Origin: a virus
Taxonomy: Duplodnaviria > Caudoviricetes
DNA: 62,237 bases
Strand: one strand, 5' to 3'
IMG/VR virus record: IMGVR_UViG_3300016665_000348
Span: 1 to 62,237 of that record
Shown: positions 2,755 to 48,253 of the stretch, one piece after another
Layout: every line of letters starts with the position of its first letter
Numbering within the stretch: position 1 is the first letter of the stretch
Position numbers and translations under genes: made by a program
The notes under the pieces: model-generated
The model's database searches: none
Told to the model about the DNA's origin: nothing
Seen by the model: the letters and a program-made list of their open reading frames with translations, nothing else

Positions 2755-2796
2755 GCGAACTTCCAATCTTGGTGTAATTATCACTTGAAAATACAG

Positions 2797-14200: not shown

Positions 14201-14273
14201 CGACATTCAGAACAATGCAGACAACACTCCTGGTAGAGAGACACAAAGCCAACAACAAAGATCATCGATTTAA
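11202..14273 (+). CDS. Putative baseplate hub protein (gp27/gpD-like)
   Basis: 1023 aa. IEYGW motif and C-terminal 'GCPLLEFG...YYYVTGLSHKFEQGSFTT' are characteristic of hub proteins; tail context. Confidence 0.6.
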   Translation: MSFAANHIQTSIPLQDAIKMLSKYYGLYTVRDLSGRIALSQIQGQESGTSYDLPQPPEYITRMIELLIDTSTGGYTSNDIINGINKMLEVGTAEQGSENSGQELVQAVNRIVKIAYGPGDNNNNASVPENGGVLRGSVNGPEDSIQRILGSTEINNVPAQPNRYLSPSLSAIMMNSVRVLPIHKNINAVTIFLNGVPNVEIARSLPYLDILFQFSRPPVASNNQIQGPGLIKFLDGAEVAPDGTRRLLLNANQLSGSTSGGNTQEFTIAGMELFTAPQTLVNGNEDRNQKALGTNRRSSAVLDKFRPFMTFKSLNIEVVPTTGFMCYKTAKMDFVLHDRSRISEIADFIRPDLYSNTEILIEYGWKHPDPPSAKNAYANLINGMRCREKYGIVNVSMTFDNAGQVNITLSLAMRGANDFRTETISSAETGAGDIIRQIRELSTQVGELRRRVFQNNSPGTREVRGIQILDAAGDANGQLLLTPELRRELNTFSAQLRRNQGNPNAQALLNTLNTLYGVGNQDGQVRRLRTTIQNSIAEKLQRISRGGVEVFAAPPTPNYPEGAAAGQRYITYAGETRREIEEASRVLRTFNVRPSVTLGSLLLAFVGQPLAATHKFDDIQLIFYPFNSYAGFARTLNIANFQVDTRYFLREYTRYRMENISRAADMSLQDFLNFISRTIVEDPAAPSYGLRDPSGSHRPFWRTPRENTSSGAAESTAEDSLALQTRLESLLRSPNGTPDGSFRLPQLDYYIECVPRSTSVLADGQTREGALAMSILRIHIFDRNTTSYDTQAALLEANREEELRSLAHVSTGTGGNPGVRESHAEAARSMIEAARNAQLITRIPNSEPPMYRINGGPARLREFMMKTSPYIIVGAQGTTVKDASLSTQQNPQLSTVNLLRSFHTDPLLPNGESPGGLPLQVIPCELSVACLGCPLLEFGTKFFVDFATGTTIDNYYYVTGLSHKFEQGSFTTDVRFSPYDGWGKYRSLIETVRNAQTVLNDIQNNADNTPGRETQSQQQRSSI

Positions 14274-14689: not shown

Positions 14690-15928
14690 ATGGCAATTTA
14701 TATTGACAAAAATATCCTTGGTTTCAAACAGCATTTAATAGTGACAGGCGAAAAAGAGATATTCAGAACTGAAAGTTTGCCATCCGAAGAACTTCTTGTG
14801 TACGGGAAGCCAGATCTCCCAGAGATAGCAAGAGTCTACAACTGTCAACTCCCACGCTTCCCAGAAGGGCCGCACGCAAAAGCCATGGAAGGCGTTTTAA
14901 AGGGCGTAGATGGAGTGGTTGTACCCTGGAGTCAAGCCATGCCTCCAAAGGCTTTTAAAAGCTCTATAGAGCGTTTGGCGCATGAGTTGTGGCATGGCTT
15001 CTCGGATCTGAACCTTGACTACTATAGAAACTATTACAGCAAAACTCTTCCTTTGTTAGAAATGATGCAGCCAGCCAAGATAAACCCAATGGCTTGGATG
15101 CTTCATAAACGCAGTCCAGATCTTGTGACGCCACATGTTTTTGCAGGATTTGAAGCTAACTCTCTTGGTTATGCAAGAAAAATACATTACTCCAAGTCTC
15201 TAACGAAGACAGGAAGACTCAAGGTAGTTGAAGGGCCAAATATCCTTCTTTTGCCAAAGGTTCAAAGAAACATTATTGCTTCTCGTTTTGGCATCAATGG
15301 GAAACTGGTCCAGTTGGACTTTAGAGCACTTGAACCAAGAGTAGTATTCTCTCTTTCCTCCCCCCTCCCTGGTAGTGTTCCACTTATCAGGAAACTCGGT
15401 GATGACATATACCAAGAAGTTCTGACAAACCTTGGAATAACAGATGTTAAACGAGAACAGGTAAAAGAAGTTATTCTTGGTCAGCTTTACGGCTTAAGCC
15501 ATGAGAAGATCATTGAAAAACTTCCAGATATCAAAGACAAAGAGGGATTTGTAGAAGCAGTAAATGACTTTTTTGGTCTTTCATTGATTCGCCAGCAACT
15601 TTTGGAGGAGTACGAAGCCAATGATCGCAAGTTTATTTCTAGTTTCTATGGCCGCCCTTTGGACACAACGGATGCCAAGCCTTATATGCTTTTAAACTAT
15701 TTTGCTCAAAGCACCGCAGTTGATGTAGCTCTGTTTGGTTTTATGAACATTGTTGAATTTATTAAAAACAACGAACTAATAGTCCCTGTTTTTATCATTC
15801 ATGACGCTTTGGTGCTTGATGTTCATAACAGTGCAATGCATCTGTTGCCTGAATTGCAAAAAATAGGTTCAACCAACATTCCAAAGTTAAACTCTGTTGT
15901 TTTCCCAATAAGTTCTTCTCGTTTTTAG
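14690..15928 (+). CDS. Family A DNA polymerase-like protein (polymerase core only)
   Basis: TKTGRL, motif A QLDFRALEPR, motif B REQVKEVILGQLYG, NYFAQSTAVD and motif C IIHDALVLD. Confidence 0.8.
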   Translation: MAIYIDKNILGFKQHLIVTGEKEIFRTESLPSEELLVYGKPDLPEIARVYNCQLPRFPEGPHAKAMEGVLKGVDGVVVPWSQAMPPKAFKSSIERLAHELWHGFSDLNLDYYRNYYSKTLPLLEMMQPAKINPMAWMLHKRSPDLVTPHVFAGFEANSLGYARKIHYSKSLTKTGRLKVVEGPNILLLPKVQRNIIASRFGINGKLVQLDFRALEPRVVFSLSSPLPGSVPLIRKLGDDIYQEVLTNLGITDVKREQVKEVILGQLYGLSHEKIIEKLPDIKDKEGFVEAVNDFFGLSLIRQQLLEEYEANDRKFISSFYGRPLDTTDAKPYMLLNYFAQSTAVDVALFGFMNIVEFIKNNELIVPVFIIHDALVLDVHNSAMHLLPELQKIGSTNIPKLNSVVFPISSSRF

Positions 15929-16734: not shown

Positions 16735-17565
16735 ATGGCATATAACATTAAAAGACTAATTGAAACCTATCAAGTAATGACTGGCGAACGCAAAGCAACT
16801 ACAAAGGCTGGTCCTGGCTACAAGCAATGGAAACCATCTTTGACAGAGGATGGCAAGACCAAAGTTTACAACATCAGATTTCTTCCATATCAAGATCAGA
16901 ACGAGCAACCCTTTCAAGAGGTTGCTTTTTATGATGACAAGGCTTTTACGCAATGGAGATTGGTGGCACCAGCGCAGTTTGGTTTGCAAGATCCTGTTGC
17001 CGAGCTTGTAACAGAGCTTAGAAAAGACCGCAAGAACAGTAGTGCTTGGAAGGTTATCAAACCGCTTTTGCCAAAACCAAGATTTTTTGCACCCATCTTG
17101 GTTCGTGAGGAAGAAAAAGAAGGCGTTCAGATTTGGGAGCTTTCTCCAACTATGTGCAAGGAGCTTTTCAGCATCTTTGTATCAGAAGATTACCGTGATG
17201 AGGATGTGACCGATCCAAACTCTGGTCATGACTTTCAAATCACTGTCAGTGCTTCTGGTAAAACCTTTACTCCTCCTGGGTCGAACAAGTCGTACCCCGT
17301 GAACGATGTAAAGCCTCTGATCAGAGCAAAGAAGACCAAGCTTCTTGCAAATGCTGAGGAAGCACAGAAGTTGATTGATTCGATTCCGAATCTGGTTCAG
17401 ATCTTTAAGAGCCAATGCAAGTCCAGTTCCGAACTTGAAACATTGCTTGAGAACTATCTTGCACAGCCTACAAGTTCTGGGCAACCTGTTGAAGATAAAG
17501 AGGAAAAGCCAGAAGAGCCTTCTGACACAGCAGATAGCATTGCGGCTCAATTTGCGGGACTCTGA
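16735..17565 (+). CDS. Single-stranded DNA-binding protein (T4 gp32-like)
   Basis: IRFLP...PF...DP...PILVR...GVQIW...DVTDP..GHDF pattern; acidic C-terminal tail; adjacent to recA. Confidence 0.75.
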   Translation: MAYNIKRLIETYQVMTGERKATTKAGPGYKQWKPSLTEDGKTKVYNIRFLPYQDQNEQPFQEVAFYDDKAFTQWRLVAPAQFGLQDPVAELVTELRKDRKNSSAWKVIKPLLPKPRFFAPILVREEEKEGVQIWELSPTMCKELFSIFVSEDYRDEDVTDPNSGHDFQITVSASGKTFTPPGSNKSYPVNDVKPLIRAKKTKLLANAEEAQKLIDSIPNLVQIFKSQCKSSSELETLLENYLAQPTSSGQPVEDKEEKPEEPSDTADSIAAQFAGL

Positions 17566-19403: not shown

Positions 19404-19406
19404 TGG

Positions 19407-19444
19407 AGTTGGCTTGAGGAAACAACCTCAAGCCAACTTTTTTC
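19407..19444 (+). terminator. Terminator hairpin between convergent genes
   Basis: 13-bp perfect stem AGTTGGCTTGAGG-AAACAA-CCTCAAGCCAACT followed by a T-run. Confidence 0.8.
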
Positions 19445-19829: not shown

Positions 19830-20723
19830 TCAGAATGGAATGTCATCTGGCTGTGTTGTTTTGTTTATTGTTTGTGGTGGTGTAACGGTTGTTGTTTTTG
19901 GGATTGATCTTACAACTTTGTTTCCATATTTGTCATATTCTTGATGATCGTCGTAGTTGTCGTCCATATCTTGCATGTGTTGCTGCATGTGTTGCTGATA
20001 TGGTGTCGGGTTGTATTGAGAGTATGCTTTTTTACCAAAACCATAGTCCACGATCACAACTCTTCCATCAGGTGCTTTTCCTAGTTGTTCTGGCCTTCCA
20101 AGATCAGAGCCATTTGTTTCAAGGTATGGTATTGCCAAGCATATGTCAGAAAAAGCCCGTGTGAAGTTTAGCATTTTTTTATGTTGCTCTACTCTCTCTA
20201 GCGCCTTTTTGTCTTTAAAGTTTTTCCTTTCGCTTCTACTTGCAATATCCGTCAGATAAGCAATAAGTTTTTCAATGTGGTTTTGAATTTCTTCCAATGT
20301 TGTTGCATGAAAACAAAAACCACGAAAAAGCATTTCGGCTTTATCAGGTGAAAGTCCTAGTTCTTGTTCGAACTCTTCCTCAGATGAAAAAACCCTTACT
20401 TTTTCCATCACAATCCATTCATAATTTGGATGGTGAGGTTCTTTGATGGCTGCAAGCACGTTTTGAACGTTTTTCGGTACTTGGTGATAGAGTTCATACT
20501 CTGTTTGATTCTGAGTGAATCCTTTCTCATCCAACCCTGCCTTTAAAACCAAGTTGTTAGACAGCTCATAAACAGCCCTGCTGCTTCCGTAACCCACAGA
20601 ATTTAAAGTCTTTTCCAAATACTGAATGCGTTGGTTTGTACCAACATACTTTTTCAACTCCTCGAAAGAGAAAACCTCGATTTCTTCTAACAGGAAATCA
20701 AAAAACTTAGTCAAGCTTTTCAT
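19830..20723 (-). CDS. Minimal protein-kinase-like protein with C-terminal DDIPF tail
   Basis: GYGSSRAVY Gly-loop, VLK, NQTE, WIVMEK, SDLGRPEQLG, VVIVDYGF; leader MKSLTKFFDFLLEE. Confidence 0.75.
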   Translation of the reverse strand: MKSLTKFFDFLLEEIEVFSFEELKKYVGTNQRIQYLEKTLNSVGYGSSRAVYELSNNLVLKAGLDEKGFTQNQTEYELYHQVPKNVQNVLAAIKEPHHPNYEWIVMEKVRVFSSEEEFEQELGLSPDKAEMLFRGFCFHATTLEEIQNHIEKLIAYLTDIASRSERKNFKDKKALERVEQHKKMLNFTRAFSDICLAIPYLETNGSDLGRPEQLGKAPDGRVVIVDYGFGKKAYSQYNPTPYQQHMQQHMQDMDDNYDDHQEYDKYGNKVVRSIPKTTTVTPPQTINKTTQPDDIPF

Positions 20724-20791: not shown

Positions 20792-21820
20792 ATGGATAAA
20801 CGTCCAATTCTGGTCATTGATGGATTCAACTTGTTTCTTCGTCATTTCATGGTTAATGAAACAACCACTACATCTGGTGAACTTTGTGGTGGTGTTGTTG
20901 GATTTTTAAAAGCTTTGCATGGAATGGTGAACCAGTTTTCACCAGAGCGTGTTTACGTTGTATGGGAGCAAGGTGGAGGTTGTCCACGAAGAAAGAAAAT
21001 CTTCCCCGAGTACAAAAACAACAGGATTAAAACGAGATCCGACTTTCAAAGCATAAATCTTCCTTTGAATGGAGTTCCTACAAAAAAATGGATCAAAGAT
21101 GACACAGAAAGCAAGATCAAGCAGATCAAACTCCTAGTTGATTGCTTGAAGAATCTACCAGTGTGTCAGATTTACGTTGCAGATACAGAATGTGATGATG
21201 TGATTGGTTATCTGATCCGATACAAGTTGAAAAAACTAAATGCTTTGAAGATTATCGTGTCTTCTGACAGAGACTTCTACCAACTGCTTGATGAACCCGA
21301 TGTCAAGATCTTTAATCCGGCTGATAAGTCTTTTCATGATGGCCCTATTGTGAAAGTGAAAGTTGGCAAAGATGAACACCTGGAAATACCAGCCAGGAAC
21401 TATGTTCTGGTAAGAACCATGACAGGAGATGACTCCGACAACATCCCGGGTGTTCCAGGGATGGGGTTTAAAACGGCTGTGAAGCTGTTTCCGTCGCTCT
21501 CTGATGATTCCAAGGACACCACGATACAAGAATTGGTTGAGGCCGCTAAACAGCGTTTAAACGATAAGAAACCACCCAAGGCTATTGAGTCGTTGGTGGC
21601 TTGTGAAGAGATTGTAAGACGCAACTGGAAACTGATGTATCTTGGAACTGGTACGTTGGCTGCCAATCAGATTTCAAAGATTGAATACTCGGTTGACAAC
21701 TTTGAACCAAAGATGAACAAGCTTGCTTTGATTAAGACCCTGATTTCTGCTGGTGTTGTTTCAAATATAGATTTTGATTCCATGGCTTACCAGATGCAAA
21801 TTTCTTTAGTGACAAAGTAA
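20792..21820 (+). CDS. 5'-3' exonuclease / flap endonuclease (T4 RNase H, PolI 5' nuclease family)
   Basis: VIDGFN, EYKNNR, ECDDVIG, SSDRDFYQL, GDDSDNIPGVPGMGFKTA. Confidence 0.92.
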   Translation: MDKRPILVIDGFNLFLRHFMVNETTTTSGELCGGVVGFLKALHGMVNQFSPERVYVVWEQGGGCPRRKKIFPEYKNNRIKTRSDFQSINLPLNGVPTKKWIKDDTESKIKQIKLLVDCLKNLPVCQIYVADTECDDVIGYLIRYKLKKLNALKIIVSSDRDFYQLLDEPDVKIFNPADKSFHDGPIVKVKVGKDEHLEIPARNYVLVRTMTGDDSDNIPGVPGMGFKTAVKLFPSLSDDSKDTTIQELVEAAKQRLNDKKPPKAIESLVACEEIVRRNWKLMYLGTGTLAANQISKIEYSVDNFEPKMNKLALIKTLISAGVVSNIDFDSMAYQMQISLVTK

Positions 21821-22011: not shown

Positions 22012-23481
22012 ATGTCCACTACACAAAGTGCAGACAACAGGAAGTCTTTTTCTAATTTTGACCGACATTTTCAGGAAAAAATTGTGCAAGCGATGCTTAC
22101 TGACAGGCAATGGGCGGCACAAATGGCTGAGGTTATCAACCTGGATTACTTTGAATACGCTTATCTGCGTAGATTGACTGCAAAATATCTTGGGTACTAC
22201 CAGAAATACAAAGAGTTTCCATCCTTGGAACTTTTCGTGTCTGTTGTTCGTGATGATCTGAAAAATGAGGCTGATGCTGCGCTCGACCTTCAGATCAAAA
22301 CTGTTATTGTAAACACAAAAAACAAAAAAGATCTTGGCGACTTGCAACATGTCAAAGATGTCGCTCTTTCTTTTTGCCGTCAACAAGGATTTAAGAACGC
22401 ATTGGTTGAGTGTTCTGAGCTTATCAGCGAAGAAGAGCAGTATGATCGTGCCATTGAAATCATTAAAAAAGCTATTAGTGCGGGTCAGACACAAAGCCCT
22501 GGTTTGGACCTTGAGAATGATGTTGATGCACGATATTCAGAAACATATCGCAAAACCATCAAAACAAACATACAAAGTGCGAATGGTTCTAGCAGCTTAG
22601 ATTCAAGAAAGATTCTGAATGGCGGTGCTGGATGCGGTGAGTTGAATGTTGTCATTGCTCCCACAGGCGTAGGAAAAAGCCATTTTCTTGTTCACATTGG
22701 AGCACAAGCTCTGCTTCAAAACAAGAATGTGTTGCATTTCACATTCGAGTTGAACGAAAGAGCGGTTGGCATTCGTTATGACTCCCACCTTCTTGGTATT
22801 GATTCGCTTGAATGTGCCGAGAGAAAAGAAGAGATCAAACAGTTCTATGCTGAAAACAATGGAAAGATTGGACACTTGCGTGTCAAGTATTTTCCAACTG
22901 GAACTGCCACTGTCAACACCTTGCGTACATTCATTGACAAACTGGCGTTGGAGAACTTCCGCCCAGATATCATCGTTGTTGACTATGCGGGAATTATGCG
23001 TTCAACAGAGAAGTATGAACTTCCTCGCATGGAACTCAAGAAGATCTATGAAGAACTAAGATCTTTTGCAAATGAGATGGACGTTCCTGTGTGGACAGCA
23101 ACGCAATCAAACAAAGACGGTGCGGATTCTGACGTTATTACATTGGCGAACATGTCAGAGTCTTATGCTCAAGCACACATTTGTGACTTTGTTGTTGGTC
23201 TTGGAAGGCCAGAAAGTCAAAAAGCAACCGGATATGGCACCTTGTTCATTGCAAAGAATAGGGCCGGTATTGACGGTTTTTCTTACAAAGTAAGGATTGA
23301 CACAGCCAGGTCTAGAATTGAAATCTTGTCAGAAGAAGAAGTAAAAAACTATACTGCTGAACAAGAACGCGAAAAACAAGAAGAAATGAATCTTGTCAGA
23401 AGGACTCTTCGGCAGATTAACGTTCGCAAAGTAATGGGTAATCAGAGCTCTTTGGAGTTGTCTGATGGCAAAACGGATTGA
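22012..23481 (+). CDS. Replicative DNA helicase (DnaB / T4 gp41-like)
   Basis: Walker A APTGVGKS, FTFEL, IVVDYAG, WTATQSN, KNRAG. Confidence 0.9.
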   Translation: MSTTQSADNRKSFSNFDRHFQEKIVQAMLTDRQWAAQMAEVINLDYFEYAYLRRLTAKYLGYYQKYKEFPSLELFVSVVRDDLKNEADAALDLQIKTVIVNTKNKKDLGDLQHVKDVALSFCRQQGFKNALVECSELISEEEQYDRAIEIIKKAISAGQTQSPGLDLENDVDARYSETYRKTIKTNIQSANGSSSLDSRKILNGGAGCGELNVVIAPTGVGKSHFLVHIGAQALLQNKNVLHFTFELNERAVGIRYDSHLLGIDSLECAERKEEIKQFYAENNGKIGHLRVKYFPTGTATVNTLRTFIDKLALENFRPDIIVVDYAGIMRSTEKYELPRMELKKIYEELRSFANEMDVPVWTATQSNKDGADSDVITLANMSESYAQAHICDFVVGLGRPESQKATGYGTLFIAKNRAGIDGFSYKVRIDTARSRIEILSEEEVKNYTAEQEREKQEEMNLVRRTLRQINVRKVMGNQSSLELSDGKTD

Positions 23482-23497
23482 AGAGAAGGATAAAACA

Positions 23498-26400
23498 ATG
23501 GCAGATTACAATCAGGCACTAAATGAGTCTCTTGACTATTTTAAAGGCAACAAGATAGCAGCTTCAGTATTTGTTGGAAAATATGCATTGAAAGACGAAT
23601 CTGGGAATATTATTGAAACCACTCCAAAAGCAATGCACAAGCGCCTTGCAAAAGAGTTTGCAAGAATAGAATCCAAGTATTCAAACCCGCTATCAGAAGA
23701 TGAAATTTTTGGTTACTTGGATGGGTTCGAGTATATCATCCCACAAGGTTCGCCAATGGCAGGAATAGGCAATCCTTACCAGATCATGTCTATCTCGAAT
23801 TGCTTCGTGATTGAATCACCATATGATTCTTATGGTGGTATTTTGAAAACTGACCAAGAGCAGGCTCAAATCATGAAACGCAGAGGCGGCGTTGGTTTCG
23901 ACATCTCTACTATCCGACCAAAGGGTTTGCAGACAGCTAATGCTGCTCTTACTACTGATGGCATTGGAGTGTTTATGGAGAGATTCTCTAACACTTGCAG
24001 AGAGGTTGCTCAGGGAGGCCGCAGAGGAGCTTTGATGCTAACTCTTTCTGTTCATCATCCCGAGATTCGAACTTTCATTCACATCAAAGAAGATCTGAAA
24101 AAAGTAACAGGCGCAAACATCAGCATTCGTCTATCAGATGAATTTGTCAATGCTGTTAGAAACAAGGAAAAGGTTCAACTTCGTTTCCCCGTTGATTCTA
24201 CCAACCCAAGCATTTCAGAAATGGTTGATGCCGAAGAACTCTGGACTGAAATCATTGGTGCAGCCCACAAGAGTGCAGAGCCGGGACTGTTGTTCTGGGA
24301 TGCTGTTATGAAAACCTGTCCAGCAAACTGTTACCCAGAGTTCAAGACAATCTCTACAAATCCATGTCAACCCGGATGGGCAACGGTTCTAACACCAGAA
24401 GGCATTAGAACATTTGAAAACATCAATGTTGGAAGCGTGATTTGGTCAGGAAAGCGTTGGACTAAAGTTGTAAACAAGATTTGCACAGGTGTTAAACCTG
24501 TGTATGCCTACAAAACTAGAGCAGGCACTTTCTATGGAACTGAAAACCACAGAGTTGTATCTGGTGGTGAGAAGATTGAAGTAGCCATGGCTGAGTCAAT
24601 TGACACGTCTCAGGGTCAGTTGTCTTTTGAAGAAGCTTCACAAGCACTTGATCCACGAGATGTCATGGATGGCTTGGTTTGGGGTGATGGCGAGTTCCAC
24701 AAAGCATCCAACAGGGTTTTTCTTCACATTGGTAAAGATGATCAATGCTATTTTGATAGCGAGATCAGACATCTTGTTGTTGAGCATCGACCAGGGGTAA
24801 AACCAACAGCGTATCTTGTTCAGACAACCAACGAATTCTTGAAAAAAACATACGAACGAGAATTGCACCCTGATTGGCTACACTCGGCAAATCAACAAAA
24901 GATTCGTGGTTTTCTTCGAGGCTTGTTTACGGCAAATGGAACTGTGGTGGGTAATAGAGTTCAACTCAAATCATCTTGTTTGAAGTTGGTAGAACAGGTT
25001 CAGTTGATGCTTTCAATGCTCGGAATTAGTTCATACTACACAACAAACAAAGCTCATGAAGTTGAGTTTGACAATGGCACTTATGAGTGCAGGGAAAGCT
25101 ATGATCTTAGTATTGGCACCAAGCAAGGCCGTAAGCTTTTTCAAGAATTGATTGGTTTTATCCACCCAGAAAAGCAAAAGAAGCTTGCAGCTTCTTTGGA
25201 GCTAAAACCAAGCTCAAAATCTCCAAAGGTTTCTTATGAGATTGTTGATACTCAATATCTTGGAGAAGAAAAGGTGTATGATATCACTGTAGAAGCTGAT
25301 GAACACACTTATTGGACAGGTGGCCTGTTGGTTTCTAATTGCGGCGAGATAACACTTTCTGCTTATGATTCTTGCCGGTTGTTGCTTGTTAATGCTTTGT
25401 CTTTTGTGAAGAATCCATTTCTCAAACCCGAGATGGATTGGAAGAAGTATGGGGAAGTTGTTCGTGTTGCTCAAAGACTGATGGATGACATTGTTGATTT
25501 GGAGCTTGAGTGTATTGATGGCATTCTTGCTAAGATCATTGCAGATCCAGAACCAGAAGAGGTAAAAAGCATTGAGTTTAACCTATGGAAAAAGATCAAG
25601 CAAGCTTGTGTCAATGGCCGAAGAACAGGTCTTGGTTTAACTGGTGTTGGTGACTTGGTGGCTGCCATGAACATGCGTTATGGCTCAAAAGAAAGCATTG
25701 AGTTCGTCGAGAAACTCTATAAAGAGTTGGCTTTGAACAGCTATAGTTCTTCCGTTAACTTGGCAAAAGAAAGAGGGGCCTTCCCAGCATATTCTTATGC
25801 TGCCGAACACAAGCATCCATTCATTCAGAGTGTCATGCAAGCGAACCAAGAGCTTGCAGAAGAATATTCTCGATATGGTCGTAGAAACATTGCCAACCTG
25901 ACCACTCCACCAGCAGGATCTACCTCCCTGTTGGCAAAGTCAATCATTGGTTATGGTGTGAGCTCTGGTATTGAAAACGTTCTTTACATCCGGGCAATTC
26001 GCAGAAAGAAGATCAATCCAAACGATAAAGAAGCAAAGGTAGACTTTGTTGATGAATTGGGGGATAAGTGGACTGAGTTTTCTGTCTATCACAATGGTTT
26101 CGAAGCTTGGAAGCAGATAACTGGCAAAACGGATGAAGACATTCAGCAATCTCCTTATTGGAATTCAACCGCAGATGACGTGGATTGGGTTGCCAAAGTA
26201 GACATGCAGGGTGCTGCACAGAAGTGGATAGATCACTCTATCTCCAACACTACAAACCTTCCAGAAGAAGCCGACATTGAAACGGTTAAACAAGTCTACA
26301 TGCGTGGTTGGGAGCAAGGATGCAAAGGCATCACCATCTACCGCAAGAACTCAAGGGCTGGTGTTGTTTTGGATGAAAAGTCAAAACAAACAACAAAGAA

Positions 26401-37918: not shown

Positions 37919-38839
37919 GTGTCAAAGTTGAACCTTCACATCACTTGCGTTCCAGCAGATCCACACTTTGCCGAATTCTGTTCTGATCCCAACGTTGCTG
38001 GGATCAGGATGAATGGTCTGCTGTTCAAAAACAGCAATCTTGGAGAGCAGCTATCAATGATCCCAAGAGGAGCAAACGTTCCTCTTTGGTTTGATGCAAA
38101 GGGTAGACAGCCTCGTGTAGAGGAAGCAATCTACTACAACGACCATCTTGAACTTGTGATGAACCACAAGTTTACTCGAATGACATTGCCTCATCCAATC
38201 ATTTTCAAGGCTGGCAATGATTGGGCAATGATTGATAAGATTGACGGTAAACGATTGATCTTGCGAGCCGATGGCTATCCAAAGTATCGAGTGAAACCAG
38301 GGGACTCCGTTCATTTCAGAAATGCAAACATTCGAATTGATGGTCCGCTTTTCACAGATGACGAAAAAAGCAAAATTGAACAAGCTGTAAAAGCTGGTGC
38401 TCGTCATTGGTATCTTTCATATGCAGAAAGACCAAGCGATGTTGAAGAATTTCGAGAGTTGATTGGACCTAACGCTGAGTTGGTTCTGAAGATTGAAAGC
38501 AAGGCAGGTCTTAAACTTGTTTCCATGCTTCCCTCTCCCGACCTCACAGGGTTCAGGCTTGCATGTGCTCGTGGTGATCTTTTTGTTGAAGTTAACCAAC
38601 CTCACGAGATTGTGGAAGCTCAAAAGTTCATCGTTGAAAGAGATCCCGATGCAATCGTTGGTTCTCGAATGCTTCTTTCGTTATTCAACGACAACGTTCC
38701 AAGCTGTTCGGATATCAACGAACTAGCATTCTTGAAGAGTATGGGCTATAAAAACTTTCTTCTATGTGATGACCTTTGCAAGAATGGCCCTGCACTTCAT
38801 AGAGCCGTTGACACATTCACAGCTTTGAAGAAGTTTTAA
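37919..38839 (+). CDS. Pyruvate kinase-like protein (barrel and lid, no C-terminal regulatory domain)
   Basis: IRMN, FDAKGRQPR, LSYAE...DV, KIESKAG, ARGDLFVE, RMLLSL..VPSCSD. Confidence 0.75.
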   Translation: MSKLNLHITCVPADPHFAEFCSDPNVAGIRMNGLLFKNSNLGEQLSMIPRGANVPLWFDAKGRQPRVEEAIYYNDHLELVMNHKFTRMTLPHPIIFKAGNDWAMIDKIDGKRLILRADGYPKYRVKPGDSVHFRNANIRIDGPLFTDDEKSKIEQAVKAGARHWYLSYAERPSDVEEFRELIGPNAELVLKIESKAGLKLVSMLPSPDLTGFRLACARGDLFVEVNQPHEIVEAQKFIVERDPDAIVGSRMLLSLFNDNVPSCSDINELAFLKSMGYKNFLLCDDLCKNGPALHRAVDTFTALKKF

Positions 38840-39486
38840 CTTCCAAGGTCAAGGATTACCAACTCGCCCGTTGAAGCGCGAATCCCCCAATTTTCATAAT
38901 GTAAATCAGAAGCATCAGCTTTGCAGGTTGATAATGCGTTTATCAACCCAGCAAACCATGAATTCGACTGATACAACCACTCAAACAATTCATTAAACAC
39001 ATGTTGGTCAAATTGGTTGCCAAGTAAGTCTGCAAACCAGATGCTAGGATCTTCTTTGGAGTGGATAACTTTTAAAGTGCTAAAGTACAAAAAGTTTTTT
39101 GCTTCGGCAGCATCATAAAACTGATGGTTCAGGTTTTTCCTCAGTTCATCGAGGAAGTCATTCTCGTCTAGAATCATAGCTTTTTCTTGAATGATCCAAT
39201 GAAACTCAGGATCAAAGTCAAGCACTTGACAAGCATAGTTTTTCATACATCTGGTGTTTTTAAGTTCTCGTTTGTTCTGGTTGCGAACATTAGTCAGTTT
39301 AATCACTTTATCAAAATCAATAATCCAGACTTCTCTGTATAGGCCATTTGAGCTTGGCATTCCCAAGCTGGCAACTAAGAATTCTCTTATTGAGTCAAAG
39401 TCTTTTAAGGTTTTTAGTTCTTGAACAGAGAAAGACTTTTTCTTTTCTTCTTTTAGCCAAGAGACAAACTGTTTAAGTGTTTTCAT
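38836..39486 (-). CDS. Minimal protein-kinase-like protein (paralog family)
   Basis: Leader MKTLKQFVSWLKEE; NGLYREVW, VIK, NKRE, WIIQEK, SDLHYENWG, VILDLGS. Confidence 0.8.
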   Translation of the reverse strand: MKTLKQFVSWLKEEKKKSFSVQELKTLKDFDSIREFLVASLGMPSSNGLYREVWIIDFDKVIKLTNVRNQNKRELKNTRCMKNYACQVLDFDPEFHWIIQEKAMILDENDFLDELRKNLNHQFYDAAEAKNFLYFSTLKVIHSKEDPSIWFADLLGNQFDQHVFNELFEWLYQSNSWFAGLINALSTCKADASDLHYENWGIRASTGELVILDLGS

Positions 39487-39487
39487 G

Positions 39488-40141
39488 TTAAAATCCCAAG
39501 TCAATAATCACCAACTGACCTGTTGATGTTCTAAAGCCCCAATTGTTAGTGCCAAAGTCATCTGACCCAACATTGCATTGTTTGAGTCCTTCAATCAGTT
39601 CACGAAACCAACCTGAGACTTTAAGCCAATGGCGCGCAGCCTTCAGTTTGTTTTCAAAAACATAGTCATCTCTATACCTCGAAACAGTTCTCCCAGATTG
39701 GGCGATCTCAATGGTATGTTGAATGTCCAGATCGTTAAAATATGGATAGGCAGATTTGTCTATTCCTAGATTGCTAAAGAATGCAGACACAAAACTGTCA
39801 TCGTCCAACAGTTCTGCTCTTTCTTCTATAAGCCACCAAAACTCAGGGTGATGTTTATACACATCGACTGCGAACTTTTTCCCAAGGCACTTTGAATGAG
39901 CAACTTCTCTTTTGTTGTGCTCTATTCCTTCAATCATTGTAGCTATCTTAAGCACTTTGGAATCGGTTAAAGCAAAAGTTGCTCGAAAGCTTCCCGTTCC
40001 GATCACTCTCATTTTTGTTTTCACCAGGTATTGAATCGCTTTAACTCGATCTTCTATTGCTGAGAAAGTTTCAAAGCTGAACTGGTTTGATAGCTCTTGC
40101 TCTTCTTTAAGCCAAGATGTGAACTGTTTCAATGTTTTCAT
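39488..40141 (-). CDS. Minimal protein-kinase-like protein (paralog family)
   Basis: Leader MKTLKQFTSWLKEE; GTGSFRAT, VLK, HNKRE, DDFGTNNWG, VIIDLGF. Confidence 0.8.
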   Translation of the reverse strand: MKTLKQFTSWLKEEQELSNQFSFETFSAIEDRVKAIQYLVKTKMRVIGTGSFRATFALTDSKVLKIATMIEGIEHNKREVAHSKCLGKKFAVDVYKHHPEFWWLIEERAELLDDDSFVSAFFSNLGIDKSAYPYFNDLDIQHTIEIAQSGRTVSRYRDDYVFENKLKAARHWLKVSGWFRELIEGLKQCNVGSDDFGTNNWGFRTSTGQLVIIDLGF

Positions 40142-40142
40142 G

Positions 40143-41462
40143 TCAGAATCCCAAGTCCAACAAAACAACCTCACCTGTTTCTTTTCGCAATCCCCAATTG
40201 CCAGGATGGAAATCAAAAGAAGCAACATCGCAAGATTCAAGTTTTTGCATTAGTTCTTTAAACCACTCATTGTTTTCAAGCAAATGGTCCCTGATATCAT
40301 CAAGAGCAGGCCAACCAGCAAAAAGATCGGTTATTTCATCATCGTGTTGAAAGTTGTAACCAGTGATTTTGTTTATGGCTTTGACGAATGCAGCCTCGCG
40401 GTTTGCAAAAGAAAACAAGTTTTCTTCAATAAGCCACTTAAAACCATTTGGATCAAAATCAAAAATCTTGACTGCAAACTTCGATGTCATGCACGTTGCG
40501 TTTTGGTATTCTTGTTCGTTTTGATTGCCTTCCCGTTTTGTTGGTAAAAGCACCTTGATTATTTTGGATGAATCAATTTCCCAAACAACTCTTCCTTGTC
40601 CTTCAGCAAGTGGTTTTCCCAAGTTGCTCATACAGTATTCTGTTATCTCACTGAGATCTGTCATGGACTTCAGGAGGCCCAGAGAAAAACCGACAACTTC
40701 TCGTTCTTCTTTAAAAAACTGATCTTCAGGGCTTATGTCTTGTTGATTGAATCCAAGGTCCAATAAAACGAGACGCCCATCTTTGGAACGAATTCCCCAG
40801 TTGGCATGGTGGAAATCCCAACTTGCAAACTTGCAATGCTTTGTTTTTGTTAAGAAGTTTTGATACCAACTGCTTTGTTTCAAAGCTTGTTGATGAATAT
40901 CAAGATACCTTTGGTCCACTTCTGGGTCGGCTTGACTGATGTAAGACAAAGCGGCAAAGTATTGTTTGATGTCAAAAGAGTCTTGGAAAGATACAGGTGG
41001 TGTTAGCCCCATCAAATTGTTAAGAGAAACGATCAACTGTTCTTTTTTAATAGGTTGTATTCTCTCTTCTAAAAGCCAGTTGAAATTTTTGTCGTGTTCC
41101 AAAACCTGAACTGCCAACTCTGGACCAAGGCAAGAAGCATTGTTTACTTCATTAACATTTTGATATTTCTTGTTGTCGCTCAAAGCAACCTTAAGAACTG
41201 TTTGTTCATCAATTCCATAAGTGACTCTGGCTTGCCCACTCCCTAGCGGTTTTAATGTCCTTCTAGCGTAATCTCTTATCTCTTTTGAGGTTTTAAGACT
41301 TCTAAGATGTTCCAAAGAGAAAGTTTGGGTTGGAACAGTTTCTTCCTCGGATTGAGCAAACTTTTCCGTGCTTCCTTTGCCAGTTTTTAAAAAACCAAAA
41401 ATCTCTTTAAGTTCTTCTTTCGCTGTTTCACGAATAAAGGAGTTGAGTTTTGAGTGATGCAT
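40143..41462 (-). CDS. Tandem two-domain minimal protein-kinase-like protein
   Basis: Two full motif sets: GSGQARV..WDFHHANWG..LDLGF and AEGQGRV..FDFHPGNWG..LDLGF. Confidence 0.8.
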   Translation of the reverse strand: MHHSKLNSFIRETAKEELKEIFGFLKTGKGSTEKFAQSEEETVPTQTFSLEHLRSLKTSKEIRDYARRTLKPLGSGQARVTYGIDEQTVLKVALSDNKKYQNVNEVNNASCLGPELAVQVLEHDKNFNWLLEERIQPIKKEQLIVSLNNLMGLTPPVSFQDSFDIKQYFAALSYISQADPEVDQRYLDIHQQALKQSSWYQNFLTKTKHCKFASWDFHHANWGIRSKDGRLVLLDLGFNQQDISPEDQFFKEEREVVGFSLGLLKSMTDLSEITEYCMSNLGKPLAEGQGRVVWEIDSSKIIKVLLPTKREGNQNEQEYQNATCMTSKFAVKIFDFDPNGFKWLIEENLFSFANREAAFVKAINKITGYNFQHDDEITDLFAGWPALDDIRDHLLENNEWFKELMQKLESCDVASFDFHPGNWGLRKETGEVVLLDLGF

Positions 41463-44500: not shown

Positions 44501-45276
44501 TCAACTTCTCTGATGATAGCTTTACTATTCGAGACGGCCGCAAACTGATCCCTTCTTTTTCGGCAATCAAAGGAGTTGGACAAGCAGCTTTGCAGGAGAT
44601 TAAAGCCTACAGGCCATATTCGAAAACAGCAGATCTAATTGTCAATGCCGATGGAACTTGGAGACATAGCAAGTTTAACAAACGTGCTTTTGGCAATCTG
44701 ATAAAAACCGGCGCGTTTGAATCTATGGGTTTGGTTGGACCAAACAGTGTTTTTGCCAACTACAAACAAATGCACACTGTGTTTATTGACAACTATGACA
44801 AACTCAAAAGGATAGCAGCTAGAAAAAAGAACAATGATGTAGTAGCTGAATTAAACAGGTTGATTGAAGAGATCAAAAACAATCAACCAGAGGATTGGAC
44901 AACAGAAGAAAAGATTGAGTTCAGTAAAGAACTCACTGGTCAAGTAGATGTGTCACTTGTTGTTTCTGAGGAGATGCTTGATTACTTTACTAAAGCCAAG
45001 ATTGAATCTGTTGACTCTTGGGCAAACCAAGATGACTTCTATTGGGCAATCATTGATTCATGCTCTGTTGAAAAATCATCAACAGGTAGTGACTATTTGA
45101 AAGTCGCTTTCCATGGCGACTCAGGAACCAAAAGAAGTTGTAAAGTTTGGAACTTTGATAGAACCAAACACACACCGTTTAAGAAAAACGATGTGTTGAT
45201 AGGCAAGTTTCAAAAAGATAATTGGGGAATGAAGTCGTTTCCTAACAAACTTAGAGTTCTTAGATCAAAAACCTAA
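41533..45276 (+). CDS. dnaE: DNA polymerase III alpha subunit (family C)
   Basis: PHP motifs LHSHTTYS, TDHGN, GVEAY, HLVLLAKN, DAHY; polymerase motifs RGSAGGS, PDIDSDF, HAGGVII, KFDVLGL, FRPGP, YGFNKSHA. Confidence 0.95.
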   Translation: MSIAPKRFVGLHSHTTYSTYDAIGRPQDHIDFVLRNGGDALACTDHGNMNSFSHQYIHAEKVKKAGKHFKAIHGVEAYFVPSLARWKDLYEAQRAEKARERAAASSRRPAASEEPLLLNLGDDMASTVSELEGIAELKQEEVDLDDSGGTIVENEEESKGAASKYRNPLYQRNHLVLLAKNDEGLKSLFKIVSNSAADGFYRYPRIDLDMLQKHGKGNIIALTACIAGYPAKIIFDHQKEPDHKLWVPNTDNFEEIQAELALAISEFQNALGKENYYLELQFNKLGAQHLVNQHLIEASKRTGCPLVVTCDAHYSDPAHWKEREIYKMMGMLQFLKPDGERRQIPQTIEELKCELYPKNADQVWESYKNYGKPYSFYEDDVIREAIERTHDIAHQQIETAHPDRRVKLPSIEKIVAPEELVSLKQEFGEEADEDTLAFKEVKKLAVEGLVMRKLQRKQNYVDRLKYELEVIKTLKFAKYFLTYYQIMKIASEHMLIGNARGSAGGSLLAYVLNITQMDPIKHDLLFERFMTRKKKAFPDIDSDFADREKAVSLLQEYFGEENVIPVSNFAALKPLSLIKDLCKLYGVPFEDVNKYTTTMIQEVMAVKKSEPGFDAAQYELTFEDLAAHSASYQEFMQTVASSFPGFQDTLDVLWKQQRTVGRHAGGVIITDNAREAMPLIKAKGGLQTPWPEGLAARHLEEFGLLKFDVLGLGTLRVFEECIRRILKKNGQKYVTQKDINKWFFENLHPDNNPMNDLKVYKNVYWEGRYAGVFQFVKDNVQKFMQKMQPTSVLDIAIATSIFRPGPMGLGAHEIFLKNRMNPEEVNYVHPILEEILGYTGGLLIFQEQLQLIVNKLSAMHLDDTDGIRKAFTKKDKSNAEKQAKEIKSLGEKFVADSMAHSGISQKDAELVWADFEKWTAYGFNKSHAMAYAITSYQCAWLLTYYPDEWIASYLDFATVGKGKSASGEDPKSVALMEARTLGYKIGKPDINFSDDSFTIRDGRKLIPSFSAIKGVGQAALQEIKAYRPYSKTADLIVNADGTWRHSKFNKRAFGNLIKTGAFESMGLVGPNSVFANYKQMHTVFIDNYDKLKRIAARKKNNDVVAELNRLIEEIKNNQPEDWTTEEKIEFSKELTGQVDVSLVVSEEMLDYFTKAKIESVDSWANQDDFYWAIIDSCSVEKSSTGSDYLKVAFHGDSGTKRSCKVWNFDRTKHTPFKKNDVLIGKFQKDNWGMKSFPNKLRVLRSKT

Positions 45277-45924
45277 GTCCAGAATGATCAATTCGCCCGT
45301 TCCAGGGCGAATTCCCCAATTTCTATAATGAAGGTCTTGAGAATTCACTTCGCACTGTTGAAGAGCTTTAACAAGATTTTGAACCCACAAAGATTCATTA
45401 AACAAGGGATATAAGGCTTCATATTTTTCTTTTTCGTAGCCTTCGACCAAGTGCTCAAAAATATCCGCTATCATCATAGATGTATCAACTAGCGTATATC
45501 CTATGTCAGTTTTCATTTCCAAAAATGTATCAATTCTTTTTCCGATTTCTGCAACGAATCTTTGTTCACTAAGTGGTTGAAGTTTTTCTTCAATTATCCA
45601 AATGCCGTTGTGGTGATGATCAAAGATTTTAATTGCATAAGATGGGCCAAGACATTCTGCATTATGAATCTCATTGAGATTGTGGCTTATTCCTTCTTCT
45701 TCGATGGCAAGTTTGATAATTGTATTGTTGCCAATATCCCAAATCTCCCTAGTTTCTCCTGATGCATTAGCCATGCCAAGAGTTAATATCAAATATTCAC
45801 GAATTGTTTTAATTTCATTAACTTGATGTTCGAAACTGTCACTTGGGATACTTTTCAAGTCCGTCAAAGAAAACTTTCCCTTGCCTTCATTCAGCCAACA
45901 ATAAAATTGTTTTAACGTTCTCAT
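45265..45924 (-). CDS. Minimal protein-kinase-like protein (paralog family)
   Basis: Leader MRTLKQFYCWLNE; SGETREIW, IIK, HNLNE, QDLHYRNWG, IILDLGF. Confidence 0.8.
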   Translation of the reverse strand: MRTLKQFYCWLNEGKGKFSLTDLKSIPSDSFEHQVNEIKTIREYLILTLGMANASGETREIWDIGNNTIIKLAIEEEGISHNLNEIHNAECLGPSYAIKIFDHHHNGIWIIEEKLQPLSEQRFVAEIGKRIDTFLEMKTDIGYTLVDTSMMIADIFEHLVEGYEKEKYEALYPLFNESLWVQNLVKALQQCEVNSQDLHYRNWGIRPGTGELIILDLGF

Positions 45925-45925
45925 G

Positions 45926-46606
45926 TTAAAATCCTAAGTCCAGAATGATCAATTCCCCAGAACCAGGGCGAATCCCCCAGTTTTTATGATGAAAATCATG
46001 TGCTTCAACTTGGCACTTTCTCAAACCCGCTATTAAACCTTTATACCATGGATTGTTCATCCATGCTTTTATATTGTAAGGAGAAGATGATGCAGGCGAG
46101 CCTACAGCGAACTCTAGTGCCATCATGAAAGTGTTTTCCTTCGAATCCAGCTTATCTAAAGTTGCTTGTTGAGTTGCAGAGTGCGTTGGTTGAGGGAAGC
46201 TAGGAATAGGCCCCAAGCGTTTTTCGAGCTCACTGATAAAAGCTTCAAGACTGAGTGGTTGGATTTTCTCTTCCGCAATCCACCAGAACTCATGGTGTTT
46301 TGCTGTTAGTTGAACAGCGTATTTCTTTCCAAGGCACGAAGAGTTCCTAGATTCATTCGCATTCTGTTCAAAATCAACCTCATCACCATCAGATCTTAAG
46401 ATCTTCAAAACGGTTTTACCATCTATCTCGTAAGTCTTTCTATAAATGCCTTGACCCACTTTCTTCAATCGGTTTTCCACATATTCTTGAGCTTCTTCTA
46501 ATGTTTCACAAGCATTCAACTCATCAATTGAAAATCCTGTGGTTTCAACTTCCAAAGCCTGAAGCTCTTCTTTTAAAATGCTTTTAATGAATTCTTGGAG
46601 ATCCAT
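45926..46606 (-). CDS. Minimal protein-kinase-like protein (paralog family)
   Basis: Leader MDLQEFIKSILKEE; GQGIYRKTY, VLK, QNANE, HDFHHKNWG, IILDLGF. Confidence 0.8.
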   Translation of the reverse strand: MDLQEFIKSILKEELQALEVETTGFSIDELNACETLEEAQEYVENRLKKVGQGIYRKTYEIDGKTVLKILRSDGDEVDFEQNANESRNSSCLGKKYAVQLTAKHHEFWWIAEEKIQPLSLEAFISELEKRLGPIPSFPQPTHSATQQATLDKLDSKENTFMMALEFAVGSPASSSPYNIKAWMNNPWYKGLIAGLRKCQVEAHDFHHKNWGIRPGSGELIILDLGF

Positions 46607-46648
46607 AATCGAATTTAAATAGAAAAGGCATTGTGCTATTCTATAAGA

Positions 46649-47785
46649 ATGAAGATACAATCAGGGTACATACCAACAGATATCGTGTACGTTTTAGGAT
46701 CAACAACCGAAGTAACATCTCGTTGGAAGTTGGCTGATCAAACGACCGAAGAACTGAAATACATAAAGGTTATTCCGGCAAGCATTTATGTCCCTGATGA
46801 TCGAGTTAAGATTAACCGCGCTATTCAACAAGTCAAAAGAGAAACATATACGCCAGATGAAGTAAAAGCTGTAATGGTGTCGAACAAACCACTAACACGA
46901 GTTCAAGTTGTCACTAGCGAGTTAAGCAAAGAAGGCATGGTCTATAAAGTAACCACTTCCGAAGGTTACTTCTTTGAGATTTCTGGGGATGTTTTGCTTG
47001 AAGCCATGAAAAACATGGGAGTCGAGCATGGAGGATATCTCAAAGGCGAGTATGTTTGGGCTAAAATAAGAAATGAAATGCATCTAATCCGAAAAGACTC
47101 TGAGCTTTTCAATGTCTTAGTAGAACAAGGGGACAGAGCTTTACTTTCACCACTTCCTTTAAAAACTCTTAAACCTGGTGGTGTTTATCTATCACCAGAT
47201 GGCAAACAAGGCGTCTTTCTTGGTTATGTTTCTAATGAGCAACTTGCGCTAAAATGGCCCATCAAAAATCCAGAACTCTATTACATCTTCAATATTGAAG
47301 ACCGTGCCATGCCCATGCCGTGTCTTTCTGTAAGAAAAAACAACTCCGTTATGTTGTGGTTTATTGCGCCTTACAACAAACTTACGCTTGACCCGACAAA
47401 CGCACTAAGCAATTACTTCAAAAACGATTTATCAAAAGCGCATATTTCTTCTTCATTCAAACTTAAAACATCTAATCCCTTTGTTAAACAGATTGACCAA
47501 ATAGACATCCCAGAAAACATCATTGACTTAGTTCAAGCCAAAGCACTTTGGACATACAAAACAACACTGGCTCATTGCATTGACACTCAAACGCACAACA
47601 ACAACAGAAAGTTTTTCTTGGAAGTGATTAAAATTGCCATCAATGCCGCACCCTATTGCTTTATGAGAGCTAAAGGCGCTTTGCCGGTTAGTTCAACCGA
47701 TAAACTTCTGGATTGGTTGCGAGAAATGAACAAAAAGCCTATCAACTTTAAAAATCCAACTTTTCTGCTTGAAAAGATAAAGTAA
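46649..47785 (+). CDS. Hypothetical protein
   Basis: About 378 aa; ATG at 46649 lies 6 nt after TGcTATTCT. Confidence 0.7.
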   Translation: MKIQSGYIPTDIVYVLGSTTEVTSRWKLADQTTEELKYIKVIPASIYVPDDRVKINRAIQQVKRETYTPDEVKAVMVSNKPLTRVQVVTSELSKEGMVYKVTTSEGYFFEISGDVLLEAMKNMGVEHGGYLKGEYVWAKIRNEMHLIRKDSELFNVLVEQGDRALLSPLPLKTLKPGGVYLSPDGKQGVFLGYVSNEQLALKWPIKNPELYYIFNIEDRAMPMPCLSVRKNNSVMLWFIAPYNKLTLDPTNALSNYFKNDLSKAHISSSFKLKTSNPFVKQIDQIDIPENIIDLVQAKALWTYKTTLAHCIDTQTHNNNRKFFLEVIKIAINAAPYCFMRAKGALPVSSTDKLLDWLREMNKKPINFKNPTFLLEKIK

Positions 47786-48176: not shown

Positions 48177-48253
48177 AAGTTTAAGTATTTGCAGATCTAA
48201 TTTTGAATCTGCCCCGTTGTAAATTGAATCTATTTAAGCGTACAGGTGTTGTA

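Follow-up and report, generated by a model that had tools for sequence, protein, structure and literature searches.

A conserved SSB-Ct-like tip at the C-terminus of a kinase-like protein from an uncultured jumbo phage

The gene and its C-terminal tip

[quoted passage not shown] The window has a GC content of 42%, is ~17% complete as estimated by CheckV, and is a fragment of an uncultured jumbo phage. An earlier note on this DNA had described the gene as a kinase paralogue carrying a mimic of the SSB C-terminal tip (SSB-Ct). The open reading frame (ORF), its stop codon and the ending TTQPDDIPF were borne out, as was the match of DDIPF to the bacterial tip (PMC5872125; published work is cited throughout from excerpts), and the overall interpretation in that note is partly supported. 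We conclude that a phage kinase-like enzyme carries a real, conserved SSB-Ct-like tip and that the mechanism proposed below is plausible; that this is a genuine gene with a conserved tip is nearly certain.

Translation was assigned to the ATG at 20723, which is preferred over an alternative upstream TTG at 20807 because the orthologues start at an equivalent M-x-[ST]-L-[KT]-[EK]-F; the TTG start would also overlap the divergent FEN gene. The gene and its C-terminal parts are as follows.

19830..20723, minus strand: whole gene, kinase-like protein with SSB-Ct-like C-terminal tip; stop codon 19830-19832; orthologues 46-51% identical, 297-306 amino acids
19914..20033, minus strand: ordered part of the extension, residues 231-270; helices 231-237 and 241-254, block pLDDT (predicted local distance difference test) 76-94, conserved YDKYGN
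19848..19913, minus strand: flexible P/T/K/Q-rich linker, residues 271-292; poorly conserved, low confidence in the model
19833..19847, minus strand: tip D293-D-I-P-F297-COOH; the same five residues with which E. coli SSB ends

Conservation of the tail in homologs had been set beforehand as the test of the SSB-like reading. A family profile searched against 1.84 billion representatives retrieved 2470 at E <= 1e-3 (837 at E <= 1e-10), and the endings of 156 family proteins were compared, comprising the query, six close orthologues and the best 150 of the 2470 representatives (one shared). The six close orthologues all end in [DE][DE]IPF. Across the whole set, [IV]PF-COOH terminates 16/156 proteins, which are exactly those whose alignment covers the C-terminal end of the profile, reaching position 295 or 307. 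All 16 tail bearers keep the terminal motif, whereas the stretch of linker ahead of it is variable, and the test thus did not refute the SSB-like reading. At position -3 there is I in 15/16 and V in the remaining one, D or E occupies position -4 in 11/16, and an acidic residue lies within the last eight positions in 16/16, with tips such as DDDVPF, DGDYIPF, DDYIPF, DEGNIPF, NPNYIPF, NDDIPF, DDNIIPF, SSDIPF and similar. When only the 13 full-length members are considered, P296 and F297 are invariant (1.0) and I295 is found in 12/13 (0.92); the major-residue fraction in the 22 linker columns (271-292) is 0.23-0.69.

A chance ending was ruled out. By the amino-acid composition of the window, [DE][DE]IPF at a protein end is expected at ~2e-6 per protein, and an ending [ILVMFYW]PF occurs in 1/478 window ORFs of at least 50 amino acids, namely the gene studied here. 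Among 1727 complete ORFs in 37 loci, the tip was present only in two orthologues, the same two being the only bearers among the 44 family ORFs of these loci. An FtsZ-tail-like motif was considered and rejected: the FtsZ tail reads D-I-P-x-F, and an adjacent P-F at the very terminus does not fit it.

The tail-bearing subfamily is small, amounting to ~10 of the 2470 family representatives as counted among the best 150 of them, and it comes from uncultured phages only, so that model systems would not have brought it to light. A metagenome scan for further tail-bearing loci gave, among the matches listed, an IPF-ending member in none of 33 loci, and a tblastn search of 50,697 phage records returned core matches only (query residues 20-237) and no tail-bearing orthologue.

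In E. coli, the SSB-Ct sequence DDDIPF is engaged in essential interactions (PMC5872125), the protein ending in FDDDIPF (PMC13490951), and the tip recruits at least 17 SSB-interacting proteins (PMC10018359). Judged from its residues, we consider the phage tip reasonably likely to be an SSB-Ct equivalent. The pockets that bind SSB-Ct read the Phe side chain together with its carboxylate, as well as the Pro affected in ssb113, features that the invariant Pro-Phe at the free C-terminus of the phage protein would supply, and E. coli proteins with such pockets include ExoI, RecQ, RecO, PriA, RecG, DnaG and the chi subunit. When tail residues 255-297 were docked against E. coli exonuclease I (EX1_ECOLI) using a 13-row alignment, the score was 0.00; this run, made without controls, counts neither for nor against binding. 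The protein was rejected as an SSB in its own right: PF00436 does not match it and it has a kinase-like fold, the tip alone being shared.

The kinase-like core

The protein was assigned to phrog_4301 (E 3e-15), a large, phage-only family annotated as 'unknown function'. An AlphaFold2 model built on a 53-sequence alignment reached a mean pLDDT of 91.6 and a predicted template-modelling score (pTM) of 0.81. G46, R49, K61, E75, W103, D207, G215, D226 and G228 are invariant in this alignment, and G46, R49, K61, E75, D207 and D226-x-G228 are also invariant in the 13 full-length tail members. By their order and the predicted secondary structure, these residues would correspond to the Gly-rich loop, the beta3 Lys, the alphaC Glu, the catalytic-loop Asp and a DFG-type D-x-G of protein kinases. 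The core features are listed here.

20034..20723, minus strand: kinase-like core, residues 1-230, with N-terminal helices, G46-S-S-R49, VLK61, E75, WIVxE107, D207 and D226-Y-G228-F; from the alignment, AlphaFold2 and Foldseek
20571..20588, minus strand: Gly-rich-loop equivalent G46 S S R A V51; G46 and R49 invariant, aligns with the G-loop/beta3 of SteC kinase (E 0.006)
20541..20543, minus strand: Lys61, putative ATP-binding beta3 lysine (VLK); invariant, strand 58-63 of the model
20103..20105, minus strand: Asp207, putative catalytic-loop aspartate; invariant, role proposed from motif order
20046..20048, minus strand: Asp226 of D-Y-G, putative DFG-equivalent metal-binding aspartate; D226 and G228 invariant

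Comparisons of the model point in the same direction. In a Foldseek search of the PDB, the matches listed were all kinase-like phosphotransferases, namely APH(2''), YtaA, methylthioribose (MTR) kinase, a lanthipeptide-synthetase kinase domain and PknB, with probabilities of 0.89-1.00. Against BFVD, the best matches were uncharacterised RaK2-like jumbo-phage proteins (E 1e-9 to 1e-6; RaK2 and CBB proteins at E 1e-8 to 1e-6), and entries named protein kinase matched at E 5e-5 to 6e-4. Searching the sequences of the PDB with a profile aligned the G-loop/beta3 region with SteC kinase (E 0.006) and the catalytic region with Ser/Thr kinases (E ~0.2), and hhalign gave a probability of 99.3 (E 5e-20) against a 'putative protein kinase' of Salmonella phage Munch (CPT_Munch_046). 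The ESM Atlas returned viral hypothetical clusters only, the nearest named cluster having Phage_T7_kinase (PF27024) in 17% of its members (score 0.94), which we take as a lead only. Taken together, the model makes a kinase-like fold very probable, and we conclude that the protein is a divergent enzyme of minimal, protein-kinase-like build, with a putative activity and substrate class. That the enzyme is catalytically active we regard as fairly probable.

The C-terminal extension

The core of this family normally ends after D-[YL]-G-F, and the protein studied here continues for a further ~70 residues. The earlier note had taken everything past DYGF to be a disordered linker, which holds for the last ~27 residues only: residues ~271-297 are modelled with low confidence, the last two block means of pLDDT being 68 and 58, and look flexible, but residues 231-270 are predicted to be ordered. 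A wholly disordered extension is therefore ruled out by the block pLDDT of 76-94 over residues 231-270. Within this ordered part, Y237, Y242, D264 and G267 (D264-x-Y-G267-N) are invariant in the 13 full-length tail members.

Paralogues and the wider family

A phmmer search of the window ORFs with the protein detected four others at E 1e-7 to 1e-10, and a fifth paralogue (38836-39504) was linked through the ORF at 45265-45924 (E 2.7e-35). With the gene studied here, the family thus comprises six ORFs and seven domains in the window, the five others being located as follows.

38836..41462, minus strand: three tail-less family ORFs, 38836-39504, 39488-40240 and the tandem double 40143-41462; end in LDLGS/LDLGF
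45265..46660, minus strand: two tail-less family ORFs, 45265-45924 and 45926-46660; end in LDLGF

As had been noticed earlier, these paralogues have no tail. All five stop at LDLGF or LDLGS, right after the DFG equivalent and without an extension. They are closer to one another (E 1e-30 to 1e-56) than to the gene studied here (1e-8). An 87-kb relative has one tail-bearing copy and two other family loci.

Tandem arrays of the minimal kinase domain are frequent in the family (P0011, P0013, P0014, P0020 and others), the 923-amino-acid P0011 containing up to eight matched stretches; the ORF at 40143-41462 is a two-domain example within the window. A second recurrent tip was also observed, in which ...T[KR][KR] comes after an acidic stretch and closes, or nearly closes, 7/156 family proteins (P0066, P0087, P0110, P0113, P0114, P0119 and P0124) and several locus ORFs (L009, L013, L021, L022 and others), and other family members end in poly-Asp/Glu. 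These endings suggest that the tails may act as exchangeable addresses.

Genomic context

The earlier note had placed the gene in a replication block, and Pfam and PHROG assignments of the neighbours agree. On one side lie a PolA-like protein, an HD hydrolase, a gp32-type SSB (phrog_224/1192), RecA and a dUTPase, on the other side FEN, a DnaB-like helicase and a ribonucleotide reductase (RNR) with a LAGLIDADG insert, and farther along an SNF2 helicase, ThyA and a DnaE-type polymerase, so that the surroundings form a block of genes for replication and nucleotide metabolism. By blastp, this order recurs in L001 and L002, which are related viral contigs, and in each of them the kinase gene is opposite in strand to its neighbours. 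The closest features are given below.

20792..21820, plus strand: FEN / 5'-3' exonuclease, divergently transcribed neighbour; PF02739 and PF01367, arrangement kept in L001 and L002
19428..19688, minus strand: 86-amino-acid ORF downstream on the same strand as the kinase gene, possibly co-transcribed; ORF call
19405..19440, no strand assigned: terminator-like hairpin with a 15-bp stem, lying where the dUTPase gene and the minus-strand unit end towards each other; sequence scan
16735..17565, plus strand: the phage's own gp32-type SSB; phrog_224 and phrog_1192, tip S-I-A-A-Q-F-A-G-L

The 86-amino-acid ORF has no Pfam or PHROG match; an ORF 40% identical to it follows the kinase gene in L001 and is missing from this position in L002. 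Promoter and terminator scans around the kinase gene gave counts that do not exceed those of shuffled sequences (4 promoter-like versus 3.5; 2 terminator-like versus 1.6).

Few genes of the module are as diverged as the kinase. It is 49% identical to its L001 counterpart and 47% identical to that of L002, the module neighbours ranging over 60-84% and 43-74%, respectively (RecA 83/74%, FEN 81/62%, DnaB 84/67%). It is the most diverged gene in the comparison with L001, and only PolA (43%) is lower in that with L002. Because the kinase is otherwise so strongly diverged, its fixed tip is the more telling, and fast divergence combined with a fixed tip is what would be expected of a host-facing protein with a constrained docking peptide.

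The phage's own SSB had been reported to end differently, which is indeed the case. The gp32-type SSB ends ...IAAQFAGL, and a tail alignment showed that the tip S-[IV]-x-x-Q-F-x-x-L is common to it and its two orthologues (L001, 6897-7802, minus strand; L002, 13062-13877, minus strand) and comes after an acidic stretch; it is probably the partner-recruiting peptide of this phage clade. A bacterial-type SSB (PF00436) was not found in the 62-kb window or in the 87-kb relative contig. Since the tip of the gp32-type SSB differs and PF00436 was found in neither contig, the IPF tip is not simply the phage's own SSB code.

Hints at the host are slight. There are no tRNAs in the window, and the nearest isolated phages are remote: by tblastn, the helicase and SSB match Microcystis phage Mel-JY01, Flavobacterium phage immuto and an uncultured 484-kb phage at 29-35% identity. 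Use of Shine-Dalgarno sequences is low (GGAG or GAGG at -20 to -4 in 4/35 genes versus a 5% background), and leaders are A-rich. Such features are typical of hosts such as Bacteroidota or Cyanobacteria; we treat them as a hint of host type only.

Several other genes of the window were noted. The RNR large subunit (23465-26968, plus strand; PF02867 over residues 111-959) is interrupted by an intein-like LAGLIDADG domain at 480-558, and its L002 orthologue of 833 amino acids aligns in two pieces and seems to be without the insert. A Pol III alpha of the DnaE type (41533-45276, plus strand) has PHP, NTPase, finger and helix-hairpin-helix (HhH) domains and matches many phages by tblastn, all at <31% identity; the family A polymerase-like protein (14690-15928, plus strand) is short, with 412 amino acids. 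A 278-amino-acid protein without a Pfam or PHROG family (52015-52851, plus strand) has a basic stretch and then ...AVELEEDF, an acidic tail with a terminal Phe, which we take to resemble tails of the T7 gp2.5 type. A pyruvate-kinase-barrel-like protein (37919-38839, plus strand; PF00224, E 6e-8) and a protein whose C-terminal domain is that of an Fe/Mn superoxide dismutase (48203-49180, plus strand; PF02777, E 1e-19) are auxiliary metabolic genes. Finally, three very large plus-strand ORFs at 2785-7281 (1498 amino acids), 7481-10861 (1126 amino acids) and 11202-14273 (1023 amino acids) have no Pfam or PHROG family; the 1023-amino-acid protein is 84% and 71% identical to proteins in L001 and L002 and has no match in the 50,697 phage records by tblastn.

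Discussion

We propose that the gene belongs to a phage-specific family of minimal protein-kinase-like phosphotransferases, probably active, in one subfamily of which a core normally ending after D-[YL]-G-F would have gained an extension of ~70 residues. The first ~40 of these would pack on the enzyme, and the last ~27 would form a flexible leash ending in acidic residues and I-P-F-COOH. The tip may insert into the SSB-Ct-binding pockets of genome-maintenance proteins, so that the docked kinase would be tethered to them and could phosphorylate the bound proteins and their neighbours, competing with SSB as long as it stays bound. While the phage replicates, the SSB interactome of the host would in this way be re-programmed or disarmed. 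The steps that we infer are the phosphotransfer activity, substrates that are proteins, docking of the tip in SSB-Ct pockets and the host origin of the partners. Phosphorylation of proteins looks like a recurrent theme here, since the window also encodes a fusion of DnaJ and a Hanks-type kinase (35616-36638, plus strand; PF00069, E 4e-30; N-terminal DnaJ PF00226, E 4e-14) and a NinI-like serine/threonine phosphatase (60405-61193, plus strand; phrog_246, E 3e-34; calcineurin-like PF00149, E 8e-18). We give the whole chain, a tip-docked kinase phosphorylating host SSB partners, about an even chance, and rate the specific assignment of its targets as host SSB partners that become phosphorylated slightly below that.

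A number of observations weigh against this proposal. The earlier note's term 'kinase' is supported by fold and motifs, yet no database makes the call: in a Pfam search with the single protein, no family reached the cut-off and the best matches were unrelated (E >= 0.04), and the PHROG annotation offers no function. A PDB sequence search with the single protein likewise gave nothing meaningful. The PDB fold matches are globally weak (template-modelling score 0.22-0.32; best Foldseek E 7e-4), and the best of them are small-molecule kinases of the APH type, for which reason protein substrates are only proposed. In place of the catalytic-loop Asn (D-x4-N), the tail subfamily has, one position later, Q, S or H; the wider family mostly has H and the window paralogues have N. 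Because this position is variable in the tail subfamily, catalysis is not assured. The profile comparison with the T7 kinase gp0.7 was not significant (hhalign probability 0.5 for gp0.7 alone; 1.2, E 0.044, against an 8-member alignment of T7 kinases). As for the tip, position -4 is non-acidic (Y, N or I) in 5/16 cases, which makes these less SSB-like, and a single tip on a presumably monomeric protein would be expected to compete poorly with tetrameric SSB. Lastly, the SSB of the host may end in something other than IPF, and since the contig represents ~17% of the genome, the remainder may encode a partner or a bacterial-type SSB of the phage.

The last point leads to an alternative that we consider rather unlikely, in which the tip docks on a phage-encoded replisome or recombination protein (FEN, DnaE, PolA, the DnaB-like helicase, RecA or one encoded beyond the fragment) and so brings the kinase into the replication complex of the phage, where it would regulate phage rather than host proteins. 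The gene lies inside the replication module, divergent from FEN and at a position kept in three contigs, the contig amounts to just ~17% of the genome, and homologues of some of these proteins bind SSB tails in bacteria and T4. However, the whole module is syntenic, so that adjacency to FEN is not specific. Moreover, the phage's own SSB has a QFxxL tip, which is the code that one would expect partners from the phage to recognise, whereas the kinase tip is identical to the bacterial motif.

It is also quite unlikely that the tip binds an unrelated partner or folds back as an autoinhibitory element, its identity with SSB-Ct being convergent and the enzyme possibly a small-molecule kinase. The aminoglycoside and sugar kinases among the best PDB fold matches fit such a role, as do the other recurrent tips of the family (...T[KR][KR] in 7/156 and the poly-acidic ends), because of which tails in this family appear to have several uses. 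The exact five-residue identity with the SSB tip, kept at the very terminus, argues otherwise, and in the model the tip is not docked on the core (pLDDT 58).

A pure decoy, which would stoichiometrically block the SSB-binding pockets of host nucleases and helicases with a kinase activity that is irrelevant or lost, would draw on the same motif evidence as the tethered kinase and could account for the variable Asn-equivalent position. We hold it to be improbable: K61, E75, D207 and D226-x-G228 do not vary among the tail members, not even the most diverged of them, which speaks for catalysis having been kept, and with one tip per protein, competition with the abundant tetrameric SSB would be expected to be poor. 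Least probable of all, [I/V]PF might be a turnover signal restricting the kinase to a short burst rather than a docking peptide, as the three C-terminal residues (LPF) of Streptococcus mutans SsbA suffice for ClpXP degradation (PMC5143411) and the T7 kinase acts in a short burst (PMC13645617), but recognition of the SsbA LPF is strain-dependent and was not seen in other bacteria (PMC5143411), and a degradation signal would need neither conserved acidic residues nor a leash of ~27 residues.

Returning to the tethered kinase, the SSB C-terminal tip is a hub peptide that recruits many bacterial replication, recombination and repair enzymes, and a phage that sends a modifying enzyme to every reader of this tip, instead of replacing SSB, would be following a different strategy. 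If the proposal is correct, the protein would show in a concrete case by what means jumbo phages direct their many orphan kinases to targets, would build on the recent finding that the T7 kinase is steered by its C-terminal domain, and could reveal which SSB partners threaten phages. A still broader reading, which we put forward as unlikely, is that phrog_4301 is a toolkit of 'addressed' minimal kinases, in which a core ending in D-[YL]-G-F is combined with interchangeable C-terminal peptides that address host hubs. The IPF class would address the SSB interactome, and the T[KR][KR] and poly-acidic classes other targets; the IPF kinase would phosphorylate, and so switch off, SSB-recruited nucleases, helicases or defence systems sensing single-stranded DNA (ssDNA) or SSB. 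Such a toolkit would be the linear-motif counterpart of the DNA-binding address of the T7 kinase.

Comparison with known systems

In excerpts of the literature on phage kinases and SSB-Ct, SSB-Ct mimics and DDIPF, largely titles and abstracts, we found no description of an SSB tip on a kinase or other non-SSB enzyme. The work on SSB-Ct mimics concerns peptides, small molecules or SSB itself, and, to the same extent, DDIPF tips are reported only on SSBs or SSB-like proteins. An overview of jumbo phages (PMC7824862) does not mention the phrog_4301 kinase family in its passages on kinases and SSB.

Among the systems that are known, bacterial SSB-Ct itself shares with the phage protein a series of acidic residues followed by I-P-F at a free C-terminus, after a flexible and poorly conserved leash. 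It differs in that the phage tip sits on a kinase-like enzyme without a PF00436 match rather than on a tetramer of the oligonucleotide/oligosaccharide-binding (OB) fold; the phage linker is P/T/K/Q-rich, and there is presumably one tip per molecule. The RaK2-like jumbo-phage proteins of phrog_4301, such as CPT_Munch_046, belong to the same family but end shortly after DYGF or bear other tails.

Other mobile elements copy the host SSB tip as well. The SSB-like protein Bas52_0087 of phage Bas52 carries FDDDIPF (bioRxiv 10.64898/2026.04.29.721553) and prophage DUF669 proteins carry DDDIPF (PMC13687109), in both cases presumably to engage host SSB partners. These, however, are ssDNA-binding OB-fold or DUF669 proteins and functional SSB analogues, whereas the protein described here is an enzyme of another fold.

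A parallel in design is the T7 kinase gp0.7, a promiscuous kinase that is directed to a class of targets by its C-terminal part and that disarms host systems (PMC13645617). BFVD entries of T7-like phages named protein kinase match the phage protein weakly (E 3e-4 to 6e-4), and the catalytic-loop pattern D-[FLM]-H-x-x-N of the T7 kinase recurs, by eye, in the tail-less paralogues of the window. In contrast, the T7 kinase has D-P-V in place of DFG (PMC13645617), D213-P-V215 being invariant in the T7 kinase alignment, where the phage protein has D-Y-G. The protein also lacks a shut-off or DNA-binding domain; its address would be a five-residue linear motif rather than a folded domain. We do not place the protein in the T7 kinase family because the profile comparison is not significant; D-P-V is also absent. 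Both halves of the arrangement are already known, phage kinases with targeting modules on the one hand and phage proteins copying the SSB tip on the other, and they are precedents for the mechanism proposed here.

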